Part shown: positions 27,345 through 52,945 of the stretch, piece after piece
Layout: every line of letters begins with the position of its first letter
How positions within the stretch are numbered: position 1 is the stretch's first letter
NCBI GenBank assembly: GCA_003252295.1
Contig: QKEV01000013.1
Span: 25,920-89,919, forward strand
Origin: a bacterium
GTDB lineage: Bacteria; Patescibacteriota; Minisyncoccia; Phycocordibacterales; UBA12088
Length of the DNA stretch: 64,000 bases
Direction: 5' to 3'
Notes under the pieces: generated by a model
The model's input: only the letters and a program-made list of their open reading frames with translations
What the model was told of the DNA's origin: nothing
The model's database searches: none
Program-made: the position numbers and the translations under genes

Positions 27345-28580
27345 CTATCCCAACAGTTTCATGAAAAGTTTTTCTATCTGGTCTACGTATCTCTCTATAG
27401 AAAATTGTTCTGCTTGAGTGTGTGCTTCTTGAGACATACACCCAAGGAGTTCTGGATCACCAAGAATCGTGAGGATCTTTATTACGAGTACCTCAGGATT
27501 GTTTGGTTCTACAAGGTAGCCAACCTCTCCATCTTTCAACCACTCACCCACTCCACCAACATTACTCGCTATGACTGGTCTCCCTACACTCATTGCTTCA
27601 ACCCCCACCTTACCGAACGGTTCAGGCCAGAGTGATGGTACGAGCAAAACTGTCGCGTCTTTGTACAGCTCGTATAGCTCATCTCTCGTCTTATGTCCCA
27701 CGAAATGTACCTTGTTCTCAAGATTGAGTTGTTTAGTAAGTGCCTCAAGCTCACCTCTGTACGCACCCTCCCCTGCTATAGTGAGTGTTGTGTCACTACG
27801 CTCCTTGTGAACCTGAGCAAGTGCTTTAAGTGCCACCTGTACCCCTTTTATTTTTTCAAGACGTCCCACATAAAGAAGGCTCGCTGATGCAGTATCTATT
27901 GGACTCGATGCAAACAGTTCAGTAGCATTAGGTATCACTGTTGCCTCCTTCCCCTCTTTTGCAAGCAAACCTTTCATGTACTCACTCATTACAAGGAAGG
28001 TAGCAACATATCGAAAACCTAAACTATAGATAGGGTAGATACAGTACCTATGGAACAGGTAATGAAGTTTGCCTGTAAGGTTAAGATTCTCTTTCGTAAA
28101 CTCATCAACACCCTCTTTGAAAAGATATTTCGGAAAACCCCACGTGAGGAGACCAAGGAAGTAATCTTCAGCACCATGCACGGTCATGATGATTGGGTAT
28201 CCTTTGAGCGCAAAGAGTACCGATGGTGAAAGTTCATACATGGTGTGAAGCTGCACAACATCTGGCTTGTACTCCAGAAGTACTCGCTTCACTTCCCTGT
28301 ATGAAGCAGGGTAAAACATACGATATAGTGCACGCATAACAAAAGAGTGGTGACTCAAAGCAGGAAATGTGTAATCTGCAAAAAATGTTTTCTCGTCTTT
28401 TTCCCTATCACTTGCAAGCACCCTCACCTCATGTCCACACTCCTCAAGCACACGGTCAGTCAGTACAATACCGTTCTCCGCTCCCCCGCTCTCATACCCC
28501 AAACTTGTAATACGTAAAATTTTCATACTACTTATATATCCGTACCTCACCATTATTAAACACGAGCGATTTATTGGCAT
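27345..28580 (-). CDS. Glycosyltransferase family 4 (GT-B)
   Basis: 411 aa; EX7E motif region EPFGKVGVEAMSVGRPVIASNVGG. Confidence 0.85.
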   Translation of the reverse strand: MPINRSCLIMVRYGYISSMKILRITSLGYESGGAENGIVLTDRVLEECGHEVRVLASDREKDEKTFFADYTFPALSHHSFVMRALYRMFYPASYREVKRVLLEYKPDVVQLHTMYELSPSVLFALKGYPIIMTVHGAEDYFLGLLTWGFPKYLFKEGVDEFTKENLNLTGKLHYLFHRYCIYPIYSLGFRYVATFLVMSEYMKGLLAKEGKEATVIPNATELFASSPIDTASASLLYVGRLEKIKGVQVALKALAQVHKERSDTTLTIAGEGAYRGELEALTKQLNLENKVHFVGHKTRDELYELYKDATVLLVPSLWPEPFGKVGVEAMSVGRPVIASNVGGVGEWLKDGEVGYLVEPNNPEVLVIKILTILGDPELLGCMSQEAHTQAEQFSIERYVDQIEKLFMKLLG

Positions 28581-30921
28581 CTAAAAATGCAACCGGGTAT
28601 GTGTACTTCAGAACAACACCATCGTACGCCTGTCGAGCAACCCCTTCTTGCAAGACTCCACCACTCACAAATACGTAAGCATCTTTCTGTATACTGCCAG
28701 GAAATATGTTTCCACTCACTGGTGTTGTGAGTACTGCTTGCAACTTTTTCTTTCCAAAGCGATCAGCTTGTACCAACGGTTCTTTTGTTGTGGTCGCCAT
28801 ATCCTCAAATATCTGCTGCTGAAGCCAGAGTATGGCTTCCTCCTCTGCGTCGGTCACTACGTAGTGATCATAGTCATCACCAGAGTTGTTGAGGTGTACT
28901 GGTGGTATGCTTCCTCCAACAAGTTGTGCAAAAACTCCTGTAGAAAAAAGAAAGAATAGTACAGCAAGTGCTCCAGTATACCTAAGTACTGTTTGATCTG
29001 ACACATCACGCCTTGGGAGTCCAAAGAATGTAACCCACCTTTCAGTAAGATGTGCTACTCCTCGTGCCAACATAATGAGACCGAGTACCATGAATGGCAC
29101 CAACACGAAGAGTGATTGCTGTATTGCACGGAAAACGCCATACTCCTTTGATAAGAGCGGAACAACCATACAGCTCACAATGAAGACCATACTCGCTGCT
29201 GCGAGCGCATACATCTCATCATCAAAACGACGTATCCAGCTCCGGTTATAGAGTGCATAGATGAGTCCCAGGAGAATTGCTAGCTGCAACAACTTTGACA
29301 ATATCTTGCCACTTGCAAGTACCACTTCACCTACACCAAGGAAAGATCCAAAAGTAGTAACGGGAAGAACATCGTCTGGCACGAGCATGTACTCGTACCC
29401 CTCGTACGTTTCTTGAGGAAAGTACAGATCTGGATTTTCTGCTCGTTCATCTTGCACCTCACCAGCAATGAAATCTTCCATAGTGTAATCAGTGGTTCCA
29501 TGATCAAATGAGAAGAAGACAAATACGTCCTGTGAGTATGAACTACCGGTAAAGCCTCCCAAAACTGCACCCATCACATCACCAGCCACTTCCTCTGCAT
29601 GACCACCAGTACCAGTGATCACGTTTGTCCACGCAAAGCTCACCATGACGAGCATGAAGATAATAGGAAGTGTTATGGCACGCTTTCGATACGTCGAGGT
29701 ACTGAGGTTCTTGAAATATGACGGAATAAAACTACCAAACAAACGTAACACTGTTACCACAAGGTAGGTAATCATGAGAACAAACAAGACCGTATAGGTT
29801 GTCGAGTAGTGCGAAAGTACCACACCAACACCAAAGAGAAAGAACAATGTTCTCCTCGCAAAGAGTGATAAGTGACGCTCGAAGAGTACGTACACCATGA
29901 GACCAAAAAACAAGAAAGCAACCTCCTGTCGTATGAGAAATGGCATATCTTGGAAAAAAGTCGGGAACGCCATGAAGCAGAGTCCAGTAAGAAAAGCCAA
30001 TCTGTGGTTGAGCCACGTTCTTGCGGTGAGGTACACCAATACAAGCACGAGTGCAAAAAGTACTTGAAGGAGTACCTTGTAAACATACGGATCAGCAATG
30101 TGTAATGTGTTGACTAAGAGTGTCGGCAACACTGTGATAGATAAGCAGGCATTGTACGCATCTACATAGGTAGACACGTCCCAGAGACCAGCACCCTTTG
30201 CGAGCTGAAAGACAAAAAACTCACGTTGTATATCATGGCCGGACACAAACCATCCTCGAAGTGATGTCATGAAGAGTAGTGCAAGTGCGTTCAGGTACAG
30301 AATTGCTGGTATTACCTGTTTCTCAATACGATTTACAAAGATAACCACTAAGAAACTGTAGAGCGCCATAGCGGCTAACATGAGCAACGTGGTGTTGTCT
30401 TCAATCCCATTATTGAGTCGTACCGCACCATCAATACTCGTCACTACAAAAAATAAAGGTGGTAGCATGAAGGCAAGACCAAGCTTGGTCTCTGCAATAA
30501 GAAAACGAGGTACATGAACAACTAACTCCTCTATATCTTTTAAAGAAAAATATAAAAGAGTGAATAGAACGACACTAAAGAGAAACCAAAGCGGCAATGC
30601 ATCAAGTGGACGAGATATTCCAACAAATGGCAGGAACCAGTTTGCAGCAAGTGCTATGAACATAAGTTCAAGTACACTCACACCTACAGATACCAACACA
30701 GTCCCCCACCCCTTTAGCTGCCTAAGATTAAAAATGCCGAGCGTCAGTATACCGGGTAGTATAAAAAACAGCGGCACACCCAAAAGATACAGCACACCAA
30801 ACATCGTGTTTGCAGAAAGAGAAAGTGTGAGCACAATAGCCCACAGAGCAACAACACCTGCTATAACATTTTTCTTTGTCAGTTTTAATTCCATAACAGT
30901 TCTTCGTACAACGTCATACAT
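28528..30921 (-). CDS. Very large polytopic membrane protein with C-terminal extracytoplasmic domain (DUF2206-like / putative glycan polymerase or oligosaccharyltransferase-like)
   Basis: 797 aa; about 16 TM helices then a ~300-aa soluble domain; sits inside the glycosyltransferase cluster. Confidence 0.4.
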   Translation of the reverse strand: MYDVVRRTVMELKLTKKNVIAGVVALWAIVLTLSLSANTMFGVLYLLGVPLFFILPGILTLGIFNLRQLKGWGTVLVSVGVSVLELMFIALAANWFLPFVGISRPLDALPLWFLFSVVLFTLLYFSLKDIEELVVHVPRFLIAETKLGLAFMLPPLFFVVTSIDGAVRLNNGIEDNTTLLMLAAMALYSFLVVIFVNRIEKQVIPAILYLNALALLFMTSLRGWFVSGHDIQREFFVFQLAKGAGLWDVSTYVDAYNACLSITVLPTLLVNTLHIADPYVYKVLLQVLFALVLVLVYLTARTWLNHRLAFLTGLCFMAFPTFFQDMPFLIRQEVAFLFFGLMVYVLFERHLSLFARRTLFFLFGVGVVLSHYSTTYTVLFVLMITYLVVTVLRLFGSFIPSYFKNLSTSTYRKRAITLPIIFMLVMVSFAWTNVITGTGGHAEEVAGDVMGAVLGGFTGSSYSQDVFVFFSFDHGTTDYTMEDFIAGEVQDERAENPDLYFPQETYEGYEYMLVPDDVLPVTTFGSFLGVGEVVLASGKILSKLLQLAILLGLIYALYNRSWIRRFDDEMYALAAASMVFIVSCMVVPLLSKEYGVFRAIQQSLFVLVPFMVLGLIMLARGVAHLTERWVTFFGLPRRDVSDQTVLRYTGALAVLFFLFSTGVFAQLVGGSIPPVHLNNSGDDYDHYVVTDAEEEAILWLQQQIFEDMATTTKEPLVQADRFGKKKLQAVLTTPVSGNIFPGSIQKDAYVFVSGGVLQEGVARQAYDGVVLKYTYPVAFLDANKSLVFNNGEVRIYK

Positions 30922-33149
30922 GAGTCAGCCACCTTTTTCCAGGTGAACTGCTCGGCATGTTGAACACTCTTCTTTTTCAAACGGACGAGCTCATCTCTAT
31001 CGTTGTGTAGACGCTTCACCGCTTCAGCGAACGCTTCAGGTGTCTGCGGAGAAACGAGTACGCCTGCATCCTGTACGAGCTCACGCAATCCCATTACATC
31101 AGAAGCAACAACTACTAGTCCTGCCGCATGCGCTTCAAGTACTGAAAGTGGCATACCCTCCTTGTCCGAGGTGGTGATAAACACGTCAGAAGTTCTATGG
31201 TACGCACGTACCTCCTCCGGATTTTTCCTGCCAGCAAAGGTCACATTTTTGAGACCTTTATCTGCAGCAAGTTGCTGTAGCTTTTTCCTATCCTCTCCAT
31301 CACCAACAATAGTTAGCTCTGCAATGTCGGTGAGGTGCTTCATGGTGAGCAGTAACCTATCAACCCGTTTCTGCACGGTAAGCCGTCCAACATACAAAAG
31401 TTGCAACATTGCAGTGTCATCATGCGCACTTGTTCTATTGAAGTACTCTTCACCAACACCGTTTGGAATAATACGCACGAGTGCTTCTGCAACACCGTAC
31501 CGCTCTACAACGAGCTGCTTCTGCTCTTCAGAAAACACAATAACCCTGTTCCCTCTCCTCAAAACAAAACCGAGTATATACTTTTTGTACAGCACAAAGA
31601 GTGGACCTAAGATACCTGATGGTTCCACATCAAGATGAAAATGAAACACTAATGGAAAACTTCGTAAACGGGCAATCAAAAGTGCCACCTCTGGAAGACC
31701 CAGCTGAGCAAGGTGTACATGGAGCACGCTGTTTTTAGGAAGAGTGAGAAGCCTATACGGGAGCATCCAGAGTATTGGTGTATGCGCTACCTCAGTAGTC
31801 TTCAGGCGATGCACTGAACAGTTTCCCATCTCTGTTGTACTTGGGTACCGCTTTGCATCGACATTACTCGTGAATACGTGCACCTTCTTCCCTCTCTTCG
31901 ACTGCTCAACTGCGAGCTCCTGTGCCACCACCTCCATACCGCCGACATGTGGTGGGTAGTAGGCAACCAGGTGAGCAATAGCATCCTGCGTACCCAGTAT
32001 ACGAAGGAAAAGATCATTGTATGAGTGCACCCTATCTTCCCATGAGTACAAGGTACTCACCTTCTCCATCCCCTTTACTCCATACCCTTCTCTCTTCTTT
32101 TTATCTTGCAAGAGATCTATGAGGGCACTCGCAAAAACTTTTACCCGTCCAGGTTCAGTGAGTAGTCCTGTCGTACCATGATCCACGAGTAGTGGCACAC
32201 CACCAACACGGGTGCTCACCACCGGAAGACCTGTCGCCATAGCCTCTGCTATAACCATACCAAAACTTTCATTCTTCGTTGGAAGTGCAAACAAGCTCGC
32301 TTTCTGAAACTCTTCCACTAATGCAGCACCATCAAGGTAACCTGTAAAACGCACCGCATCATCTATACCGAGTTCTCGAGTTCTCCTTTCGTACCACTCC
32401 CTCTTATCTCCATCTCCCACGATGGTAAGTTGAGCTTCTGGCACCTTTTTCTTTACGAGAACGAACGCATTGAAGAGTATATCGAGACCTTTATGTTCAT
32501 CTTTCGCACCAAGTCCTGCAACAAAGAGAATGTTGCCCTCCTTCCTTTTGGTTGCATCAGGTATAAAACGTACAGTGTCTACCCCCGGAGTGATGGTACT
32601 GCTCTTATGTTTGTACCGACTCAGAAAATCCTCGCGTACAGAATCAGAAACACACACGATATGGTGAGCTCGCCACAGAAGGAATCGTAGAGGAATACTC
32701 TCGTACAACCCAACAATAAGGTCTAGCAAGAAGTACCCCTTCTTCATACTATTCGTATGGTACGTCACCACAAGTGGTGTACTGCGTTTTTTGAGCAGTG
32801 TCACCACATCACCAAGACCAGGGACCGGCATGTGTACGTTAATGAGATCTGGATTGAGTTCCTTGAGAAGCTTCTTTACCTGCAGGAACCAGGAAAACGA
32901 AAACGGCGTATTTGAAACAGTGAATGAAATCGGCAAACGATACAGTGCAACCTCCCCCACCTTCTCTACGGTCAACTCTTTACCTACTCCTGTTGTGAGC
33001 ACAATAGCACTCCACTTCTCTGTATCAAAACGTGTCGTCACTTCAAACAGGTAACGCTCAAGACCACCACTATGTGGTGGAAAGTATGGGGCTACAAATA
33101 GCACTGTTTTCTTTTGTGTATCTTTGTTACTCATTGTACAGTTCGCCAT
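30885..33149 (-). CDS. Tandem fusion of two GT4 glycosyltransferase domains
   Basis: 754 aa; EX7E-type motifs at FGMVIAEAMATGLPVVSTRVGG and EGMPLSVLEAHAAGLVVVASDVMG. Confidence 0.8.
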   Translation of the reverse strand: MANCTMSNKDTQKKTVLFVAPYFPPHSGGLERYLFEVTTRFDTEKWSAIVLTTGVGKELTVEKVGEVALYRLPISFTVSNTPFSFSWFLQVKKLLKELNPDLINVHMPVPGLGDVVTLLKKRSTPLVVTYHTNSMKKGYFLLDLIVGLYESIPLRFLLWRAHHIVCVSDSVREDFLSRYKHKSSTITPGVDTVRFIPDATKRKEGNILFVAGLGAKDEHKGLDILFNAFVLVKKKVPEAQLTIVGDGDKREWYERRTRELGIDDAVRFTGYLDGAALVEEFQKASLFALPTKNESFGMVIAEAMATGLPVVSTRVGGVPLLVDHGTTGLLTEPGRVKVFASALIDLLQDKKKREGYGVKGMEKVSTLYSWEDRVHSYNDLFLRILGTQDAIAHLVAYYPPHVGGMEVVAQELAVEQSKRGKKVHVFTSNVDAKRYPSTTEMGNCSVHRLKTTEVAHTPILWMLPYRLLTLPKNSVLHVHLAQLGLPEVALLIARLRSFPLVFHFHLDVEPSGILGPLFVLYKKYILGFVLRRGNRVIVFSEEQKQLVVERYGVAEALVRIIPNGVGEEYFNRTSAHDDTAMLQLLYVGRLTVQKRVDRLLLTMKHLTDIAELTIVGDGEDRKKLQQLAADKGLKNVTFAGRKNPEEVRAYHRTSDVFITTSDKEGMPLSVLEAHAAGLVVVASDVMGLRELVQDAGVLVSPQTPEAFAEAVKRLHNDRDELVRLKKKSVQHAEQFTWKKVADSCMTLYEELLWN

Positions 33150-33837
33150 TTGTTACATAGCTAACATCACTCCTCTTTCCTATATGTTGAAACACTCGCT
33201 CCAATCGCTTCCAATCATTATTTTTTTCCAGTTCCCAGCTATGCCCCCACAGGTGAAACACTCCTCCTGTTTCTCTTACTCTATCAAACATGAGTATGGC
33301 AAGCCTATCCCAATGTCTCCATACGCGAAGGAAGGTCAATATATTGAAACGAGTAAGCACGAGCATGCGGAACACATCAGACCAGTGATTATACGTATGT
33401 ACACTTGTGCGTACCGCAAATGGATCTTCACTTTTTGTAAAACAAAAACGTTCTACCGTACGAGCATTACTAAACCCCAGATCACGAACAATATGACTGA
33501 TTTCTTTTGTGTACTTACCTCTTGGGTAACAAAAACTCACCACAGACTTGTTCGTAATGTTCTCTAAGTACTCTTTGGACTCTATGATTTCGTTCTGCAC
33601 CTCAACCGGTGTAAGTTTGGTGAGTTCCCGATGACTCATGGTATGAGCTCCCACTTCAAACACCTCAGCCAGTTTAGCTACCGCTTCATCGTTCAAACAT
33701 TCACCTGCTCCTAGTTCACTATTTTTTGGAGCAACGTAAAACGTCCCCCTTAATCCATACTGCTTCATCAGCTCTGCTACATGCGTATCAAGCACATGTC
33801 CATCATCCCAGCTAGTTGTTACTACGACTTCCTTCAT
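33127..33837 (-). CDS. Polysaccharide deacetylase (NodB homology, CE4)
   Basis: 236 aa; TSWDDGH (TFDDG variant) and HTMSH motifs. Confidence 0.7.
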   Translation of the reverse strand: MKEVVVTTSWDDGHVLDTHVAELMKQYGLRGTFYVAPKNSELGAGECLNDEAVAKLAEVFEVGAHTMSHRELTKLTPVEVQNEIIESKEYLENITNKSVVSFCYPRGKYTKEISHIVRDLGFSNARTVERFCFTKSEDPFAVRTSVHTYNHWSDVFRMLVLTRFNILTFLRVWRHWDRLAILMFDRVRETGGVFHLWGHSWELEKNNDWKRLERVFQHIGKRSDVSYVTNGELYNE

Positions 33838-33842
33838 ACCAC

Positions 33843-35030
33843 TTATACTAAAGCGTGCTTAAGGTTACGCACAACAAATTTCCAATCATACTGTGCAACA
33901 TCACGTTCTGGATTCATTGCATGACGACTATCGAGCACCTGTACTATCTTGTCAGCCAGTGCAGTTTCATCTGTCTCTGTCAGGAATCCGTTTACCCCCT
34001 CAACTATCAGATCCTTAGCAGCGTTGTTAGTGTGTGAGGTTGTTATAGCCGGCAATCCAAGAGCATTAGCCTCAAGCACAACCAACCCAAACCCCTCTTG
34101 CACGGAAGGAAGCACGAGCATTTTTGATGCCTTCATAAACTTGTACTGCTCCCCTGCCTTCACTGAATCAAAAATGGAGACATTTTTCTGGAGCTCTAAG
34201 TTACCAATGAGTGTTTGCAGTGTTATTTTTTCAGGACCATTTCCAATAATATTACACACTATGTTTGGGTACCTAGTTTTTACAATTGCTATCGCTTTCA
34301 CTAAGGTATCGATGTGCTTATGATGCAAAAGTCTACCAACAAAAATTACATCACTTTCATTTCCATCTGGATACACCGAACGCAGGTATTCTGTATCTAC
34401 ACCAAGGGGTATGGTTTCAATAGTTTTCCTCACCCCAGCATGGCGTAAACGAGCTGTGGTATGTTTTGAGTTCGATAAGATAACATCAGGCATACGAAAT
34501 GAAAGCTGTTCAACGAGGTGTGCTACCCATCCAACTACTCCACCTAGGTACTCGTTCCACTTCTCCCTGCCACACACCTCATGCCATGTTGCATACATTT
34601 TTTTACCCTTGATCCAAGTTACGATTCGCGCACTAAAGAGTGGGAAGTACGGCATATGATCTACATCGACCACATCAAACTTTTCAAAAAGAAGTTTAAG
34701 GGTGGCAAATCCAAACATGATAGCCTCGTACATTGAACGACGGCCACGAGTATACATTGGATACTGTTTACAGAGCGCATGGTATTGCACACCTTCATGT
34801 TGTACCACACGAGGTCCATCCCACCACTTCATGGTATAGACATGTACCTCACATGAATCACTCACGAGTCGTTTTGCTAGTTCATAGAGTCTCCTTTCCT
34901 TACCACCATTATGATACGGAAGCACCGCATCTGACACGAATGCTATGCGACGCACAGACTCATCATGCAACGCTTTTTTTTCCTTTACATTTGCTGTGTT
35001 ATGTTTGCTGTTCATATTATGCAAAAACAC
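33843..35030 (-). CDS. Glycosyltransferase family 4
   Basis: 395 aa; EGFGLVVLEANALGLPAITT. Confidence 0.85.
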   Translation of the reverse strand: MFLHNMNSKHNTANVKEKKALHDESVRRIAFVSDAVLPYHNGGKERRLYELAKRLVSDSCEVHVYTMKWWDGPRVVQHEGVQYHALCKQYPMYTRGRRSMYEAIMFGFATLKLLFEKFDVVDVDHMPYFPLFSARIVTWIKGKKMYATWHEVCGREKWNEYLGGVVGWVAHLVEQLSFRMPDVILSNSKHTTARLRHAGVRKTIETIPLGVDTEYLRSVYPDGNESDVIFVGRLLHHKHIDTLVKAIAIVKTRYPNIVCNIIGNGPEKITLQTLIGNLELQKNVSIFDSVKAGEQYKFMKASKMLVLPSVQEGFGLVVLEANALGLPAITTSHTNNAAKDLIVEGVNGFLTETDETALADKIVQVLDSRHAMNPERDVAQYDWKFVVRNLKHALV

Positions 35031-35823
35031 GTCGCTTCTTAAGGTGTGGAACCTTTACAACGTACGATACATCCGGACTCCAAAAATAGTTCTTTAAAAA
35101 CACAAAGAGAATACGAAGACCATCTCTAAACGGTTTTAGGTTTGACTCACCACTTCGTGCAATGTACGAGATCGGTACACAAAATATATTTTCACCAAGA
35201 CGAGCCATCTTTGTTACCATATCCATCTCTATACTAAAATCACCCGCTGTCAGGTACGGACGAAGTCGATTTAACGCATGGTAGTTCCATGCAAAGTATC
35301 CAGTGAGCACATCAGTGATGTTTGCGTGATAGAACATACGAACCAAGAATGAGAACACCCAGTTCCCAAATCGATTACGTCTGCTCATGGCACCCTTCAC
35401 TATTCTTCCAGTAAGTCGTGATCCGATCACCACACTCGCAAAACGAGACTCGAGTGGTTCAATGAGTCGGAAGAGTTCATCTGCTTGGTATGTGTTGTCT
35501 CCGTCAATCATGACTACATAGTCTGTGTCACTTGGTACGTTTTCAAATGCGGTACGCATTGCGTTTCCTTTTCCAGGATTAGATTCATGTATCACAAAAG
35601 CACCATGTTCACGAGCAACACGCGTAGTAGCATCTGTTGAATTGTTATCAACTACTATAATTTCCAACTCGTATCCTTCACGAGTTTTTACCACCTGTTT
35701 GAAACCATCAATAACGGCACCAACACCCTCCTCTTCATTTCTGCATGGTATGAGGGCCGTGATTTTTTTCTTTACCCCGCCTTGGCGGTGGTTTAGTTTT
35801 GTTTTCATATACAAAAGGTACAC
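35017..35823 (-). CDS. GT2 glycosyltransferase (polyprenol-phosphate sugar transferase / DPM1-like)
   Basis: 268 aa; ALIPCRNEE...VVDNNSTD...IDGDNTY DXD-type motifs. Confidence 0.85.
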   Translation of the reverse strand: MYLLYMKTKLNHRQGGVKKKITALIPCRNEEEGVGAVIDGFKQVVKTREGYELEIIVVDNNSTDATTRVAREHGAFVIHESNPGKGNAMRTAFENVPSDTDYVVMIDGDNTYQADELFRLIEPLESRFASVVIGSRLTGRIVKGAMSRRNRFGNWVFSFLVRMFYHANITDVLTGYFAWNYHALNRLRPYLTAGDFSIEMDMVTKMARLGENIFCVPISYIARSGESNLKPFRDGLRILFVFLKNYFWSPDVSYVVKVPHLKKRRVFA

Positions 35824-36115: not shown

Positions 36116-37354
36116 TTGAAATTCTTGCCAACAATGTTTTTTGCATTGTTGCTTTTTTATTACCTTAGTAACCACCACACAATCATGTCTACATCACACC
36201 GAAAGATGTATAAACTTAACAAAAAAGTAGGGATTTTTCTTGTACTCGCTATCACCTATTGGGCAACTGGACTTCCAGGCACACTCTTTGTTGCACAAGC
36301 GGCACAACTTAGCTCACTCAAGGACACTATCTCAACAAGTGCTCCTGGAGTTGGTGCAGACCATACAATAGAGTTCACAACACCAACCGGTGTTCCAGCT
36401 GACGGATCTACCATCGTGATAAGCATGCCGACTGGATTTGATGTAACTTCTATCACTGAAGATGATGTGGATATAACGGATGATACAGTCGATCTTACTA
36501 CTGATACGGTTTGTGGTGCGGTCAATGCAGCAGTCACCATCTCAGGGCAAGATATAACTATTGAAATCTGTAATGGTGGTGGTGGAGCTATAGCAGCTGA
36601 CAGTGCTGTTGCAATTGAAATCGGGACGAACGCTACCGCTTCTGGCACAGGTGCAAACCAAGTGGTTAACCATGCCGATGAGGGCAGTTACACGGTATCA
36701 GTTGCTGGAACTATGGAAGATTCAGGGGACACCAGTATTGCCATCGTTGAGAGTGTGCAGGTAAGCGCTGCTGTTGGTACCCTCTTTACCTTCAGTGTTA
36801 CCGGTGTCGATGAAGGGGTTACAGTAAATGATGAGACTGTATTAACCTCTGCTAGCACTACAGCAACAAGCGTACCATTTGGCACACTTGCCCCAAACGT
36901 ACCAAAAGTGCTCGCACAAGAACTGCGTGTAGACACGAATGCTCTAAACGGTTTTTCTGTCACTATTGAGGCAGATCAAACACTCACTGCAGGCAACAAT
37001 GCAACTATTGATGCATTTGCAGACGGCAGTCCTGTTGCCTCAACAACCACATGGTCAAAACCATCTGGTACCGTTGGCAGCACTGACACGTATGGACATT
37101 GGGGTATAACGAGTGATGATGATGATATTTCAGGTCTTGCAACAGACAACTGGGGAGTGGGTGAGGCAGCATACCGTGGAGACTTCATAAATAACCCACT
37201 TGAAGTCTTCTTCAATGACGGCCCTGTCACGAGCAGCTCTGGTGTAGGTGTTGGATCAACCACCGTTGCTTTTAAAATAGAGGTTTCTCCCCTTCAGGAA
37301 GCAGCAACTGACTACACGGCAAACATCATGTATATAGCGACGCCTGTGTTTTAG
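36116..37354 (+). CDS. Secreted T/S/D/G-rich cell-surface protein (possible major surface/S-layer-like glycoprotein)
   Basis: 412 aa ORF; probable true start MYKLNKK at 36206 with a signal/anchor helix. Low-complexity Thr/Ser/Asp/Gly composition. Followed by a strong terminator. Confidence 0.5.
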   Translation: MKFLPTMFFALLLFYYLSNHHTIMSTSHRKMYKLNKKVGIFLVLAITYWATGLPGTLFVAQAAQLSSLKDTISTSAPGVGADHTIEFTTPTGVPADGSTIVISMPTGFDVTSITEDDVDITDDTVDLTTDTVCGAVNAAVTISGQDITIEICNGGGGAIAADSAVAIEIGTNATASGTGANQVVNHADEGSYTVSVAGTMEDSGDTSIAIVESVQVSAAVGTLFTFSVTGVDEGVTVNDETVLTSASTTATSVPFGTLAPNVPKVLAQELRVDTNALNGFSVTIEADQTLTAGNNATIDAFADGSPVASTTTWSKPSGTVGSTDTYGHWGITSDDDDISGLATDNWGVGEAAYRGDFINNPLEVFFNDGPVTSSSGVGVGSTTVAFKIEVSPLQEAATDYTANIMYIATPVF

Positions 37355-38718: not shown

Positions 38719-38854
38719 GTAAAGAAACCTATCGGTCTCTTGTTTAAAAAAACCGCCCTCGGGGCTGGTTATATGACTATAGTACTAAAAAATACCGTGA
38801 TGTCAAGAAATGAGTTAACCGCCTCAGAAAACTGAAGCGGTTATATACTTTGTA

Positions 38855-39118
38855 TCATACAAGGTTGGCTGGCTTATCGATCCAGACGGCACCACTGTGC
38901 CAATACAACGGTTTTTTTTCATTTTGGGAAAAGGCAAGAACGGCAGTCTTATGTACCTCATCACCCTGAAGATGGTGTAGCCTGCCACAAACAGAACATG
39001 GAAAAGCAACACCTGTTACCAAGATAATCTCTTTACTGAGCTCAATTCTCCCGTCACCACACAATGGATCTTTGCATTTCATCTCGTACCCCCATGTGTA
39101 TTTTATGTAACATTTCAA
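38855..39118 (-). CDS. Zinc-ribbon protein (two CxxC pairs), function unknown
   Basis: CKDPLCGDG...CSVCGRLHH. Confidence 0.35.
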   Translation of the reverse strand: MKCYIKYTWGYEMKCKDPLCGDGRIELSKEIILVTGVAFPCSVCGRLHHLQGDEVHKTAVLAFSQNEKKPLYWHSGAVWIDKPANLV

Positions 39119-39212: not shown

Positions 39213-40052
39213 TTATCGAATTTCGTATGTTATGTTTACATTTGAGGTTACCTTGTTCTCACCTGGTTGAACAGAAACTGATTCTTCCAGATCACCTGCA
39301 CCTGCTGCCATATCATACATAACAGCTGAACGATACAGTGCTACCGGAGCATAGTCACTACCCTCTGAGAAACCTACGATACGTACGAGTGACACACCAA
39401 GGTCTCCTGCAAGCTTCTCTGCCTTAGCTCGCGCCTCATCAATAGCCTGTTTGCGCGCATCCTCACGTAATGCATCCTCATCAGCTATAGTAAATGTTAG
39501 ACCACTCACACTTGAAACCTCTTGTGAGGTTACCAACTCAAGAAGCTCACCAGCACGGTCAAGGTCCTTCACTTTTACCCTATCAGTAAGCGTAATGGTA
39601 AAGCCCACCTGCTCCCTGTTTTGAGGACAGTTGTAGGTGAGACAGGTTTCTGCTTTCTTCCATTCATACTTAGGACTCAAGTTGTAGTTGATAGTTTTAA
39701 TATCCGCATCCTCAACACCATTCTCAACAAGTGACTTCACGATAGCATTTGCTTTTGTTTTTGCGAGGTCCTGCACCTCTGAAGCAGTATCCGCCTCCTC
39801 CATAACCGTATAGGTAAACTCTGCTGTATCTGGCACAGCAAATACCTCACCTTCGCCAGAAACGGTAATAGCGTTTGATGGTGCGATACCTCCTCCTATA
39901 TAGCGATACTCTTTGAAAGATTTAATGGTCTCTGCAAAGAGAAAAGCTGCCAATAGTATGAGCACTATTGAGAGAGTGGTGTATACACGAGCGCCCGGTG
40001 CAATAGATGAGCAACTTGTCGTGCATTCTGTGGTTTTATCTGTTTGTTCCAT
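39213..40052 (-). CDS. SIMPL/DUF541-domain protein (YggE-like) with N-terminal membrane anchor
   Basis: 279 aa; TM helix, then the SIMPL-like two-lobed pattern. Confidence 0.65.
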   Translation of the reverse strand: MEQTDKTTECTTSCSSIAPGARVYTTLSIVLILLAAFLFAETIKSFKEYRYIGGGIAPSNAITVSGEGEVFAVPDTAEFTYTVMEEADTASEVQDLAKTKANAIVKSLVENGVEDADIKTINYNLSPKYEWKKAETCLTYNCPQNREQVGFTITLTDRVKVKDLDRAGELLELVTSQEVSSVSGLTFTIADEDALREDARKQAIDEARAKAEKLAGDLGVSLVRIVGFSEGSDYAPVALYRSAVMYDMAAGAGDLEESVSVQPGENKVTSNVNITYEIR

Positions 40053-40115
40053 ATAAACTAGCTTTAAATACGTGTAACTTTATACGAGGTGAGTATAGCA
40101 TAAAAAGCAGACTGT

Positions 40116-40883
40116 CTAGAGGTAATGTAATGACACACCATCAAAATCAATAAAATCAAAAAGGTAGAAGAACCAATTTGTTAAACCTGTATTCCCTAAC
40201 ACATAACTCAACCCAACAATCACCAAAATTAGACCACCAACCTTTGAAACGAGATGCAAGTACGGGAGTGTCTTTTCAACCATACAACTTGCCTGACTTA
40301 TAAGTAACGCAAAGAGTATAAGTGGAATACTAAAACCAAGAGCAAAGACACCAAGCAGTAATGTACCCGCCATGACCGTACCACTATTCCCTGCATAGAA
40401 CAGTATGAGTCCATACACTGGTCCAAAGCATGGTGTCCACCCCGTTGCAAAAGCAATACCAAGCAGAAGAGATCCTACTGGTGTAGCTACTGAAAACCAT
40501 TGGGGTAACTTCACTCTTCTTTCTTTACTGAGAAAGTTTGATGTAAATACTCCAAGCATAAAGAGTCCAAACAACATAATGAGTACTCCTCCAAATATTT
40601 TAAACAACCCCCTTGCTTCATATGGAATAACACTACCAAGAAAACCAGCAAGTGTGCCTGAGAGTATGATCACTAGAGAAAAACCAAGGGCAAAGAGTAC
40701 GCTGTGGAGCAATACAAAACGGCGTGCTTTTGCACCAGTTTTTTCATCAGCAATTTCTTTTTCTGTCACCCCACTAATAAAGCCAAGGTAAGCTGGTATA
40801 AGCGGTAGTGTACAAGGGGCAAGAAACATGAAGAGTCCTGCAATAAAAGCTGAAAGGTATGATACTGTCTCAAGTGCTACCAT
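40116..40883 (-). CDS. ccdA: Cytochrome c-type biogenesis protein CcdA / DsbD-family transmembrane thiol-disulfide transporter
   Basis: 255 aa; 6 TM; conserved cysteines in FLAPCTLPLIPAY and GWTPCFGPV. Confidence 0.85.
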   Translation of the reverse strand: MVALETVSYLSAFIAGLFMFLAPCTLPLIPAYLGFISGVTEKEIADEKTGAKARRFVLLHSVLFALGFSLVIILSGTLAGFLGSVIPYEARGLFKIFGGVLIMLFGLFMLGVFTSNFLSKERRVKLPQWFSVATPVGSLLLGIAFATGWTPCFGPVYGLILFYAGNSGTVMAGTLLLGVFALGFSIPLILFALLISQASCMVEKTLPYLHLVSKVGGLILVIVGLSYVLGNTGLTNWFFYLFDFIDFDGVSLHYL

Positions 40884-41419
40884 GTTTGTGTAAGTATGGT
40901 ATCTATCTTACTCTTCATCTCCCCATAGGTCATAGGTCCATGTTGGTGAAAAATGACCTCATCATTCTCATTGAGGAAGAGTGTCTCAGGAACAGCGTAG
41001 CCGTCCATTTTTTGATAGTACTCATCAGTACTATCAAACACATAGGTAATGACATGTTCAAACGACTGAGCATTCAGGTACTCTTTTCCATCTATCGGGT
41101 TAGTGTCACGACAGAGCGCAATAACAGCAACTTCTCCCTTGTAGTCACTTTGAAGCGTATTGAGCGCTTTAAGCTCTTCCGCACTATATGGACTCCAACT
41201 TGCCCACATATTGATCACTTTTACTTCCGCCTGTACAGTATCGAGCGATATTTCGTTGCCATTACCATCAGGTAAAGCAAAAGGATCAGCAATAGTAGGT
41301 GACTGCTGATCCTGTGTAACATGCTCATTCTTATCCTTGTTTGCAACGTAGTAGTACGTACCAGCAATTGCAAGTGTACTCAAAAATACAGTACAAAGAA
41401 CAAGTATGTAACGATTCAT
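40877..41419 (-). CDS. TlpA/ResA-like thioredoxin-fold protein lacking both active-site cysteines (WSPYS instead of WCxxC)
   Basis: 180 aa; signal/anchor; FALPDGNGNEISL...KVINMWASWSPYSAEEL aligns to AhpC/TSA-TlpA FxLxDxxG...WASWCxPC. Codons checked on the minus strand: AGT CCA TAT AGT. Confidence 0.7.
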   Translation of the reverse strand: MNRYILVLCTVFLSTLAIAGTYYYVANKDKNEHVTQDQQSPTIADPFALPDGNGNEISLDTVQAEVKVINMWASWSPYSAEELKALNTLQSDYKGEVAVIALCRDTNPIDGKEYLNAQSFEHVITYVFDSTDEYYQKMDGYAVPETLFLNENDEVIFHQHGPMTYGEMKSKIDTILTQTW

Positions 41420-41424
41420 GCTTC

Positions 41425-42132
41425 TTAATTCTCAAGTACACTGAGCGCTCGATCAATAAACATCCTTACACTATCAATTGGCTGTGCACCAGAAAATTTT
41501 ATAATATCGTTTTTACGGGTAAGTAGCACATTGTAAGGAGTGCCTCTGCCTCCAAGCTCCTGAGATGATAATGTTTGTTCATTGAGTAGTGAATCATACT
41601 TACCAGAAGCCATACATTCATCATAGGTTGCTTCATCTACCCCAAGTTCAAGTGCCTTGTTTTTACTCCATGTAACTGAAACATTTTGTTGGTCTTCAAA
41701 AGCCGCGTTCGTATAGCTCCAGAAAGCATCATTACCCAACTGTTCTGCAATACACTCACTCGCAACCGCTGCCTCCTTCCCTCCTGGTTGGTATGGTGTG
41801 TGACGGTACACCCACGCTAACTTACCTTCATACTCATCAAGAAGTTCAAGTATTGTGGCATGGAAAAGACCACAGTACCCACACCGGTAATCTGAATACT
41901 CAATGAGATACACATCTGGGTTTTCCGCACCAAGGATATGATCACGCTCGGTTATAGCAAGAGTATCTGTTTGTACCTCCGCCACATCCTCCGTTTTTGT
42001 GGTTTTTTGTTGCTCTTCCTGTGGAGCGGTCTTTGTTGCAAAGATTGCAAATGATACACATAACCCAGCAACAATAATTGCACCTGGTACAAGGTATGGG
42101 CTAGTAACTTTTTTTGTTGTTTCTTCTGACAT
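41425..42132 (-). CDS. DsbA-like thioredoxin-domain protein (membrane-anchored thiol:disulfide oxidoreductase)
   Basis: 235 aa; N-terminal TM; CGYC active site in YSDYRCGYCGLFH. Confidence 0.75.
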   Translation of the reverse strand: MSEETTKKVTSPYLVPGAIIVAGLCVSFAIFATKTAPQEEQQKTTKTEDVAEVQTDTLAITERDHILGAENPDVYLIEYSDYRCGYCGLFHATILELLDEYEGKLAWVYRHTPYQPGGKEAAVASECIAEQLGNDAFWSYTNAAFEDQQNVSVTWSKNKALELGVDEATYDECMASGKYDSLLNEQTLSSQELGGRGTPYNVLLTRKNDIIKFSGAQPIDSVRMFIDRALSVLEN

Positions 42133-42158
42133 GGTAAAAATACTTTTGTTAATACTAT

Positions 42159-42407
42159 TTATTCTTCAGTGCCACTTATAGTAGCATTTGAAAGTGATAC
42201 TGCACACACTTCCCCATCTCCTAAACATGTTTCTTTAATTTTTTCGCCCCAATGTGGCCAAATGTAAAAGAAAAATGTGACGAGTAGGAGAAACACAAGA
42301 ATACCGAGCAGCAACCTCTTATGTGCATGTTCATGTGGTTCGTGCTTTGTATCCAATACTGTTTCTTCCTGTAAATTTTCTTCTTCCATTAGGAACCATT
42401 GTACCAT
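42159..42407 (-). CDS. Small membrane protein, first gene of the thiol-disulfide operon
   Basis: 82 aa; one TM helix; His-rich N-terminus; CxxxxxxC near the C-terminus. Confidence 0.3.
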   Translation of the reverse strand: MVQWFLMEEENLQEETVLDTKHEPHEHAHKRLLLGILVFLLLVTFFFYIWPHWGEKIKETCLGDGEVCAVSLSNATISGTEE

Positions 42408-42832
42408 GTAAGAATATACGGTATTACACGTCTGTAACTTTGATGAAGCACATCATTGCAACAAACATTGTAACCGCGATACTAGGATTTTCCCTTATCG
42501 CTGTTGTTGTGCTCCATTTTTCAACAATATAAGATAAGAAGAAGGAAATAAAAAAAGACCTCTTGCTGACTATAGGGGTCTTTTTGTTTCAGAATGATAG
42601 GCCTGTTTTAATAGCGTATATTCTTTTACTAAAAATTAATTCTTAAGGTAAAAATCTTTGTTTCCGTATACAAAAATGGGACAACGTTGTAGTTACGTTG
42701 TCCCAAGGGCGATGATGGCTACCGGTTGCCATTGTTGGGGTTGTAGTTAGCGCTACTTAAAGTGCTCAGAGCTATACTCCGCTCCAGACCCGACAGGTAT
42801 AAACCCCAAATCACCTAACACCAGATACTACA

Positions 42833-52414: not shown

Positions 52415-52945
52415 CTATTCTTTTGCCATTTGCATATCCAGTGTAAAAGGCAGATCTGTATTCTTTGCCAAATCAGAAATCGGTATCGGGACTAACTCAA
52501 AATATTCACTCTCCTCAAGCGTTCGTGCAAAAGGCGCAACGAGATCACGAGTCTTTGCAACACCCTCTAACGTCATTCTGTTTTCCTTTCGATTGTAAGA
52601 AAAACCAATAATTGTTACCCTTTCTGGACGAAGGTCTGTCACTTCTTTGAAAATGTTTGTAAACTTTTTTTGCTCTAACATATCCTTCAGCACATACGTC
52701 ATGTACTGATGATACTCTAGCTCCTCACTAAGTTTTTTATTTGCTTCCACCTCTGTCTGTCGATCACTGTACTCCCTTTCTTTCTGCTCTATCTCACCTT
52801 TCACATGTATGTAACTTGGAAATAGTGCTATCACCCCAACACCTATTCCCAAAATAAAAAAGAAAAGTGTCATGTTGAGCACACGCAATGCATACTCCAC
52901 AGTTAATTCTTTTTTTCTATTCTTTGAAAGTAAATTTTGAAACAT
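52415..52945 (-). CDS. PilN-like type IV pilus assembly protein
   Basis: 176 aa; short cytoplasmic N-terminus, TM, coiled-coil periplasmic region. Confidence 0.5.
   Translation of the reverse strand: MFQNLLSKNRKKELTVEYALRVLNMTLFFFILGIGVGVIALFPSYIHVKGEIEQKEREYSDRQTEVEANKKLSEELEYHQYMTYVLKDMLEQKKFTNIFKEVTDLRPERVTIIGFSYNRKENRMTLEGVAKTRDLVAPFARTLEESEYFELVPIPISDLAKNTDLPFTLDMQMAKE

Follow-up and report, generated by a model that had tools for sequence, protein, structure and literature searches.

In the 64-kb stretch of contig QKEV01000013.1 analysed here (referred to as the window), from a member of the Patescibacteriota, we identified a five-gene operon of extracytoplasmic thiol-disulfide proteins on the minus strand, in which the TlpA-like partner of the electron carrier CcdA has lost both catalytic cysteines and reads W-S-P-Y-S at its former active site. 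That it represents a conserved and recurrent Cys-less TlpA family within a CcdA operon is solidly supported. It is probable, in our judgement, that the protein is a redox-inert binding or adaptor protein, with the electrons of CcdA going to another Cys-pair protein of the operon. All five open reading frames (ORFs) were present between 42407 and 39213, and both the ORFs and the Pfam matches bore out the gene order of the original prediction: a small transmembrane protein with no Pfam family (82 aa, 42159..42407), a membrane-anchored DsbA/BdbD-like protein with a CGYC active site (235 aa, 41425..42132), the membrane-anchored protein of ResA/CcmG/TlpA fold (180 aa, 40877..41419), CcdA, a DsbD-type transmembrane electron carrier (255 aa, 40116..40883), and a membrane-anchored SIMPL/DUF541 (YggE/BP26-like) protein (279 aa, 39213..40052). 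The DsbA-like and TlpA-like genes are separated by 5 nt, and the TlpA-like gene overlaps ccdA by 7 nt.

Reading the minus strand from 41206 to 41183 gives TGG GCA AGT TGG AGT CCA TAT AGT, which encodes W72-A-S-W-S76-P-Y-S79 (the former active-site motif, 41183..41206); S76 and S79 are both encoded by AGT, from which a single transversion gives the Cys codon TGT. In a phmmer comparison with solved structures, the segment nmWASWSPYSaeel was aligned on nfWASWCPYCrdem of PDB 3hdc, and SPYS was also aligned on the CxxC of StoA (PDB 3erw). Thus, S76 and S79 occupy the columns of the catalytic cysteines; they lie at the positions of C74 and C77 of ResA, with Glu82 corresponding to ResA Glu80 and P144 to the cis-proline position. 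The loss of both catalytic cysteines, originally predicted from the WSPYS motif, was confirmed by the codons, by this structure-based placement of the active-site column and by synteny.

The fold of the protein is that of the ResA/CcmG/TlpA type. Pfam Redoxin (Redoxin/AhpC-TSA) matched with 3.6e-12 (46.7 bits vs a cutoff of 26.6), and the nearest NCBIfam models were those of ResA, StoA, TlpA and DsbE, although the scores were far under every equivalog cutoff (47.7/170 for PRK03147, ResA; 36.1/230 for NF047696, TlpA; 30.8/123 for TIGR00385, DsbE). The AlphaFold (AF2) model, built on a 94-sequence alignment, had a predicted local distance difference test (pLDDT) of 94.1 and showed an N-terminal helix (residues 3-29) followed by a thioredoxin fold. 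The top Foldseek matches were CcmG (3gl3) and ResA (1su9/1st9), with template-modelling (TM) scores of 0.88-0.90 and root-mean-square deviations (rmsd) of 1.6-1.8 A; over the set 1su9/1st9/3gl3/4txo the TM scores were 0.7-0.9 and the rmsd 1.6-2.3 A. The N-terminal hairpin and central insert of the ResA/CcmG-type fold are present, as is the cis-Pro loop, with P144 in AVPET (100% of the Cys-less and 99% of the CxxC group in the family alignment). At the N-terminus of helix alpha1, the place of the catalytic CxxC is taken by S76-P-Y-S79. The hydrophobic helix 3-29 of the model is the membrane anchor, and by the positive-inside rule it would place the domain outside the cytoplasm.

By structure and by descent, the TlpA-like protein thus belongs to the ResA/CcmG/TlpA family, but, because S76-P-Y-S79 fills the CxxC columns, it should not be a functional oxidoreductase. 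With both catalytic cysteines replaced by Ser, the protein should be incapable of dithiol-disulfide exchange. CcdA/DsbD-dependent disulfide reductase activity is likewise predicted to be absent, since 40 of the 60 Cys-less family members lack any Cys.

Each AGT codon is a single base away from TGT, which might suggest that the real protein carries CxxC and that the Ser codons come from faulty sequencing or assembly, or from a pseudogene of recent origin, but this would require two independent changes. Moreover, the identical protein is present in an independent Logan assembly, and SPYS is kept in orthologs at 82, 66 and 42% identity. S-P-[YF]-S is kept down to about 35% identity and in six further loci, and AGY as well as TCN codons occur among the 60 Cys-less cluster representatives. 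The ORF itself is intact, and the ratio of nonsynonymous to synonymous substitution rates (dN/dS) against the 82% ortholog was 0.15 at a dS of 0.71 (0.07 for the DsbA-like gene in the same genome pair); synonymous sites were saturated in the more distant pairs. The original prediction had taken CxxC in orthologs as a sign of sequencing error. All close orthologs, however, carried SxxS and CxxC appeared only in distant ones, which therefore indicates evolutionary loss. Error is thus refuted by the ortholog conservation, and we give it practically no weight. The comparisons show that the Cys-less state is old and, as judged from substitution patterns, maintained by purifying selection.

To place the loss, hidden Markov model (HMM) annotation was run on 100 fetched loci, neighbourhoods were recovered for the family members and five arrangements (T1 to T5) were distinguished. 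A metagenome scan with the DsbA-like alignment returned mostly DsbA-like proteins in unrelated contexts, the informative loci being L018, L053 and L031/L034/L040. In T1 (L015/16, L017, L053 and L100), an ArsR-type regulator and DUF3179 are followed by the DsbA-like protein, a TlpA-like protein with W-C-P-F-C and CcdA; SIMPL follows ccdA in L016 and L017, and in L017 SecE, NusG and L11 follow as well. T2 (the window, L001, L007, L009, L010 and L018) has the order small Cys-pair transmembrane protein, DsbA-like, TlpA-like with S-P-Y-S, CcdA, SIMPL, SecE and NusG. T3, represented by a Kaiserbacteria metagenome-assembled genome (MAG; L003), has the T2 order without ccdA, and its small transmembrane protein is devoid of the Cys-bearing tail. 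The slot between the DsbA-like gene and ccdA, upstream of SIMPL-secE-nusG-rplK, is thus held by WCPFC proteins in other Patescibacteria and by SxxS proteins in the clade of the window. Because the window protein sits in the slot held by the CxxC protein in T1, synteny shows that the cysteines were lost in place, the SxxS protein being the descendant of the CxxC reductase of a conserved Patescibacteria module, DsbA-like, TlpA(CxxC), CcdA, SIMPL. In L100:1-10561, the CxxC module is flanked by two pyridine-nucleotide-disulfide oxidoreductase genes and a CzcB/RND efflux pair; these neighbours hint at a role of the ancestral CxxC module in metal or thiol stress.

The Cys-less state extends well beyond the clade of the window. 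An exhaustive profile search gave 17,812 matches at E<=1e-3 and 1,012 at E<=1e-10, and the 17 best matches were all Cys-less. Motifs were counted in the 150 top-scoring cluster representatives (clustering at 50% identity): 89 had CxxC, 50 had SxxS, 10 had SxxT, TxxS, SxxA, NxxS or VxxS, and one had CxxS. Hence 60 of these best 150 were Cys-less at both positions, among them the 40 with no Cys anywhere. One further protein from the profile search, P0026 (2,936 aa), contains at least three TlpA-like domains with WCEPC, WYEPC and WSEEC, so that the CxxC is degenerate partly and fully within one polypeptide.

A second group of Cys-less TlpA-like genes, T5 (L004, L005, L006, L011, L013 and L099), occurs in Kaiserbacteria, Saccharibacteria and Nomurabacteria. 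Here the Cys-less gene comes last in a conserved cluster that lacks DsbA and CcdA and otherwise encodes four exported or anchored proteins, all uncharacterised; the contig of L099 is truncated and shows g3-TlpA only. The cluster was located at L004:115-5531, L005:153-5384, L006:80-5390, L011:1-5564, L013:1-5561 and L099:3-1854, and the motif of the TlpA-like protein, which is encoded last of the five genes, is W-A-[ST]-W-S-P-x-S. The first gene (g1) encodes a large secreted protein of up to >2,400 aa. Two paralogous proteins of ~340 aa and ~430-585 aa have a signal peptide and a C-terminal transmembrane segment, one of them sometimes with LytR_C, and there was a weak (0.1) hint to the WxL-interacting peptidoglycan-binding domain; the remaining member, of ~160 aa, is anchored and has two Cys that are conserved. 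The cluster looks like a surface-complex assembly locus. A secreted protein of 412 aa that matches no Pfam family is encoded in the window itself (36116-37354, plus strand), only about 2 kb away from the redox operon. Homology to the C-terminal domain of T5 g1 (E 1e-10 to 7e-12) extends over its last ~190 residues, which end in ...NIMYIATPVF.

A neighbour-joining tree of the 150 family representatives was unresolved, with 19 state changes by parsimony, and was not used as evidence; group-to-group identities and masked-HMM cross-scoring were used in its place. The T2 clade is 31.1% identical to the other Cys-less proteins and 31.3% to the CxxC proteins. After masking of the active-site columns, the HMM of the CxxC group gave higher scores than that of the other Cys-less proteins for 15 of 16 T2 sequences, and higher scores than the T2 HMM for all 44 other Cys-less sequences. 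The T2 Ser codons are AGY at both positions, with the sole exception of L010 at the second position, and those of T5 are TCN, or AGY then TCN; both Ser codon families are one step from TGY. The equal group distances, the masked-HMM scores, the codon usage and the different synteny together point to at least two independent Cys-to-Ser conversions.

Loss of the cysteines might also have left a functionless relic, drifting to loss after the reductive pathway grew unnecessary in a cytochrome-free, fermentative cell of the candidate phyla radiation (CPR). Two arrangements could be read in this way: ccdA is absent from L003, and in T4 (L031, L034 and L040) the DsbA-like gene is directly followed by SIMPL, SecE and NusG, with neither TlpA nor CcdA. 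Yet the dN/dS of 0.15 is at odds with drift, and in L003 it is ccdA that was lost and the SxxS gene that was retained, whereas drift of a useless gene would predict the reverse. Although the Cys-less proteins share only about 30% identity overall, some 20 positions are more than 90% conserved among them, the cis-Pro loop and Glu82 included, and Ser makes up 92% of the Cys-less group at each former Cys position. We therefore regard a relic as very improbable.

The conserved positions also bear on what the protein may do. W72, A73, W75, P77, E82, L83, R104, D129, D132 and Y135, as well as G140, P144, E145, T146, H158 and G161, are near-invariant in both the Cys-less and the CxxC groups; at the level of the alignment, the former active-site lining, minus the two Cys, is shown to be as conserved as in the CxxC relatives. 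Thioredoxin-fold proteins with a catalytic Ser exist, such as the Ser-type glutathione S-transferases (GSTs), and S-P-[YF]-S together with R104, D129, D132, E145 and H158 might form a new catalytic or ligand- or metal-binding site, for instance a Ser-type GST-like one. Such a neofunctionalised protein would account for the preference for Ser, rather than Ala or Gly, at both positions and for the several near-invariant charged residues. The same charged residues, however, are equally conserved in the CxxC relatives, which means that they did not arise along with the loss of Cys. The two Ser are the only new invariant residues specific to the group, and Ser is an isosteric, one-step replacement of Cys and a good helix N-cap. 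We thus consider a new enzymatic or ligand-binding function unlikely.

Each of the other four proteins of the operon carries at least one pair of conserved Cys. CcdA matched Pfam DsbD_TM (PF02683) with 7.7e-15 (55.2 bits vs a cutoff of 27.1). Its essential cysteines lie, as expected of the family, in PC-x-x-P-type motifs of transmembrane helices TM1 and TM4, and C24 (APC24TLP) and C152 (TPC152FGP) are conserved in all orthologous loci of both the SxxS and the CxxC types. The DsbA-like protein matched Thioredoxin_4 (6.1e-17, 62.7 bits vs a cutoff of 23.2) and DSBA (9.1e-12), and its active site C84-G-Y-C87 and second pair C127/C173 comprise four Cys that are invariant in 8 orthologs. The DsbA-like protein had been described as the only CxxC partner in the operon, which is literally true, but two further conserved Cys pairs, in the small transmembrane protein and in SIMPL, had been overlooked.

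The small transmembrane protein has one transmembrane helix, a His-rich HEPHEHAHKR segment and a tail with the Cys pair C61 x6 C68; by the positive-inside rule, the His-rich motif would be cytoplasmic and the Cys tail extracytoplasmic. A word-index search with this protein returned only itself, and its homologs came from an HMM run on the fetched loci. Homologs with both Cys (Cx5-6C) were found upstream of the DsbA-like gene in L001, L007, L009, L010 and L018 (located, for example, at L001:913-1137, L007:834-1031, L009:3899-4156 and L018:2458-2679), and in the homolog of L003 (L003:3580-3738), which is also without ccdA, the Cys tail is absent. Variants of the His-rich motif are conserved (HEPHEHAH-KR, HEAHPHAH-RR), and this motif may be a metal-binding or sensing element. 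The small gene fills the place that the ArsR-type regulator and DUF3179 hold in the CxxC operons. The SIMPL protein (PF04402) matched with 1.3e-45 (156.6 bits vs a cutoff of 25.2) over profile positions 1-205 of 205. Its Cys pair C137 x4 C142 (CLTYNC) is conserved in L001, L003, L007, L010 and L017, and Cx4C is thus present across the SxxS-type, CxxC-type and ccdA-less operons; since it is conserved in all three operon types, SIMPL could be a substrate of the redox module.

Taken as a redox-inert binding or adaptor protein, the SxxS protein would bind its former partner or partners, or a substrate, non-covalently, and would serve exported envelope proteins as an adaptor, holdase or assembly factor. 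Retention of such binding is suggested by the conserved surface of the former active site, by the association of the T5 group with surface-protein clusters and by the persistence of the gene in L003 after the loss of ccdA. The latter locus, which retains the DsbA-like, TlpA(SxxS) and SIMPL genes, indicates that CcdA is dispensable for the SxxS protein, and the second Cys-less group, which in six lineages ends a surface-protein cluster with no DsbA or CcdA nearby, argues for a non-redox role. CcdA, in turn, would still export reducing equivalents, because both Cys of CcdA are present wherever an SxxS operon has the gene and the tight coupling of the two genes is retained. With a functional CcdA and its usual partner dead, the electrons would have to reach another acceptor. 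One candidate is the CGYC of the DsbA-like protein, which would then become an isomerase or a recycled oxidase, by analogy with SdbA and CcdA2 of Streptococcus gordonii; another is the extracytoplasmic Cx6C of the small transmembrane protein, and a less obvious one the Cx4C of SIMPL. The original prediction offered a redox-dead scaffold or chaperone as one option and a CcdA rewired to the DsbA-like protein as the other; neither precludes the other, and the sequence evidence fits both together.

The SxxS protein might instead be a decoy or regulator, docking on CcdA or on a substrate unreactively and thereby gating the flow of electrons, for example by shielding the DsbA-like oxidase from CcdA. 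The tight translational coupling with ccdA (the 7-nt overlap in the window and a spacing of 1-5 nt in the orthologs) and the conserved interaction surface would agree with such a role. On the other hand, the SxxS gene persists in L003 without ccdA, and the second Cys-less group has no ccdA nearby; a decoy is thus improbable.

Several points weigh against a redox-inert binding protein that leaves the electrons of CcdA to another Cys pair. Binding, adaptor or holdase activity is purely what we infer. The window protein has one non-conserved Cys in its domain, C103, where 82% of the family have Asn. The strict conservation of Ser could reflect helix N-capping only, or a new chemistry that we do not see. 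The link between CcdA and the Cys of the small transmembrane protein is a single co-loss (L003), and the presence of the small protein may merely track the clade. Our view is limited to 64 kb, and a second CxxC TlpA-like acceptor for CcdA may lie elsewhere. In a Pfam scan of about 20 neighbouring ORFs, no second TlpA or DsbA paralog and no cytochrome-c, Msr or VKOR context was found in the window, in agreement with the lack of a cytochrome-c context noted earlier.

ResA of Bacillus subtilis, CcmG/DsbE and TlpA of Bradyrhizobium japonicum are membrane-anchored extracytoplasmic thiol-disulfide reductases fed by CcdA/DsbD. The window protein shares with them the fold, the N-terminal anchor, the W-x-x-W-[C]-P-x-[C] frame, the cis-Pro PET loop and the equivalence of E82 and ResA Glu80, and its gene, likewise, is directly upstream of ccdA. 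It differs in that both catalytic Cys are Ser and in that the window has no cytochrome c, Sco or CoxB context. With the CxxC TlpA-like proteins of other Patescibacteria (T1) it has about 31% identity, an identical operon slot and all conserved non-Cys residues in common; their operons, unlike that of the window, keep W-C-P-F-C and have the ArsR-type regulator and DUF3179 in front, in the place of the small Cys-pair transmembrane protein.

The b and b' domains of protein disulfide isomerase (PDI) and ERp29 are redox-inactive thioredoxin folds that act by non-covalent binding. In Escherichia coli, CnoX/YbbN (SQHC) has a thioredoxin fold with a degenerate CxxC and a binding or chaperone role (PMC10998233). 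Like PDI b', ERp29 and CnoX, the window protein is a thioredoxin fold retained under selection with its CxxC gone, which would be a functional analogy only: those proteins are of unrelated fold lineages and cytoplasmic or located in the endoplasmic reticulum, and none of them is a CcdA-linked, membrane-anchored TlpA-type protein. In S. gordonii, which is without DsbB or VKOR, a CcdA protein and a thioredoxin-like lipoprotein are the redox partners of a disulfide oxidase (PMC7034828). The SdbA/SdbB/CcdA2 system may thus serve as a precedent for a DsbA-like protein and CcdA in one pathway, although SdbB has a working CxxC, the gene arrangement differs and the proteins are not orthologous. Neither Cys-less TlpA-like proteins nor the Patescibacteria module turned up in our search of the open-access full-text literature, and the operon proteins have no source name in the collection used.

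The operon is followed by secE, nusG and rplK and preceded by a DUF1653 gene, tRNA-His, tRNA-Leu and rplS; NusG and L11 of the window are 88% and 92% identical to those of a Candidatus Kaiserbacteria MAG, which makes a Kaiserbacteria-like member of the Patescibacteria the very probable source of the window. Two terminator-like hairpins were detected on the minus strand by consensus scan only, and they are the probable limits of the transcription unit. The upstream one (42677..42705), with an 11-bp stem followed by TTTTT, lies between the DUF1653 gene and the gene of the small transmembrane protein, and the downstream one (38816..38843), with a 12-bp stem, lies 3' of SIMPL and 5' of a promoter-like secE site. 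Between SIMPL and the latter hairpin, the minus-strand ORF 38855-39118 could encode a 75-87-aa zinc-ribbon (Cx4C ... CxxC) without a Pfam match. It was rejected as a sixth gene of the operon and, being conserved in no related locus, may be spurious or strain-specific.

Ribosomal protein L19 (43831-44487, minus strand) has 218 aa, with a Glu/Ala/Lys-rich low-complexity C-terminal extension of ~80 residues that is also found in the Kaiserbacteria MAG (L003:2082-2705). A cell-envelope glycan cluster at 27345-35823 on the minus strand encodes four glycosyltransferases of GT1/GT4 or GT2 type, one of them a double-GT4 protein of 754 aa, together with a polysaccharide deacetylase and a 797-aa DUF2206 membrane protein. 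A PilN-like gene (52415-52945, minus strand) belongs to what is probably an operon for type IV pilus assembly, and pilins are plausible disulfide substrates of the DsbA-like protein.

To our knowledge, the CPR/Patescibacteria are uncultured organisms with tiny genomes and without quinones, cytochromes, DsbB or VKOR. The conserved envelope redox module beside secE-nusG may be their core disulfide system for pili and surface proteins. Three forms of it recur here: one has a working TlpA, one a Cys-less TlpA, and one lacks TlpA and CcdA altogether. We propose, tentatively, that TlpA-type reductases of Patescibacteria were made Cys-less at least twice independently and became widespread extracytoplasmic W-A-S-W-S-P-[YF]-S pseudo-enzymes for the assembly or chaperoning of surface proteins, and that CcdA was re-partnered with the Cx6C single-pass protein, the DsbA-like protein or both, as a quinone-independent envelope disulfide relay; taken as a whole, this combined scenario is a good deal more likely to fail in some part than to hold. 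Dozens of Cys-less clusters carry Redoxin/AhpC-TSA matches and could be misnamed as thiol-disulfide oxidoreductases. The Cys-less form is a natural experiment that separates the binding role of ResA/TlpA-type proteins from their redox role, and it raises the question of what CcdA reduces once its canonical partner is dead.

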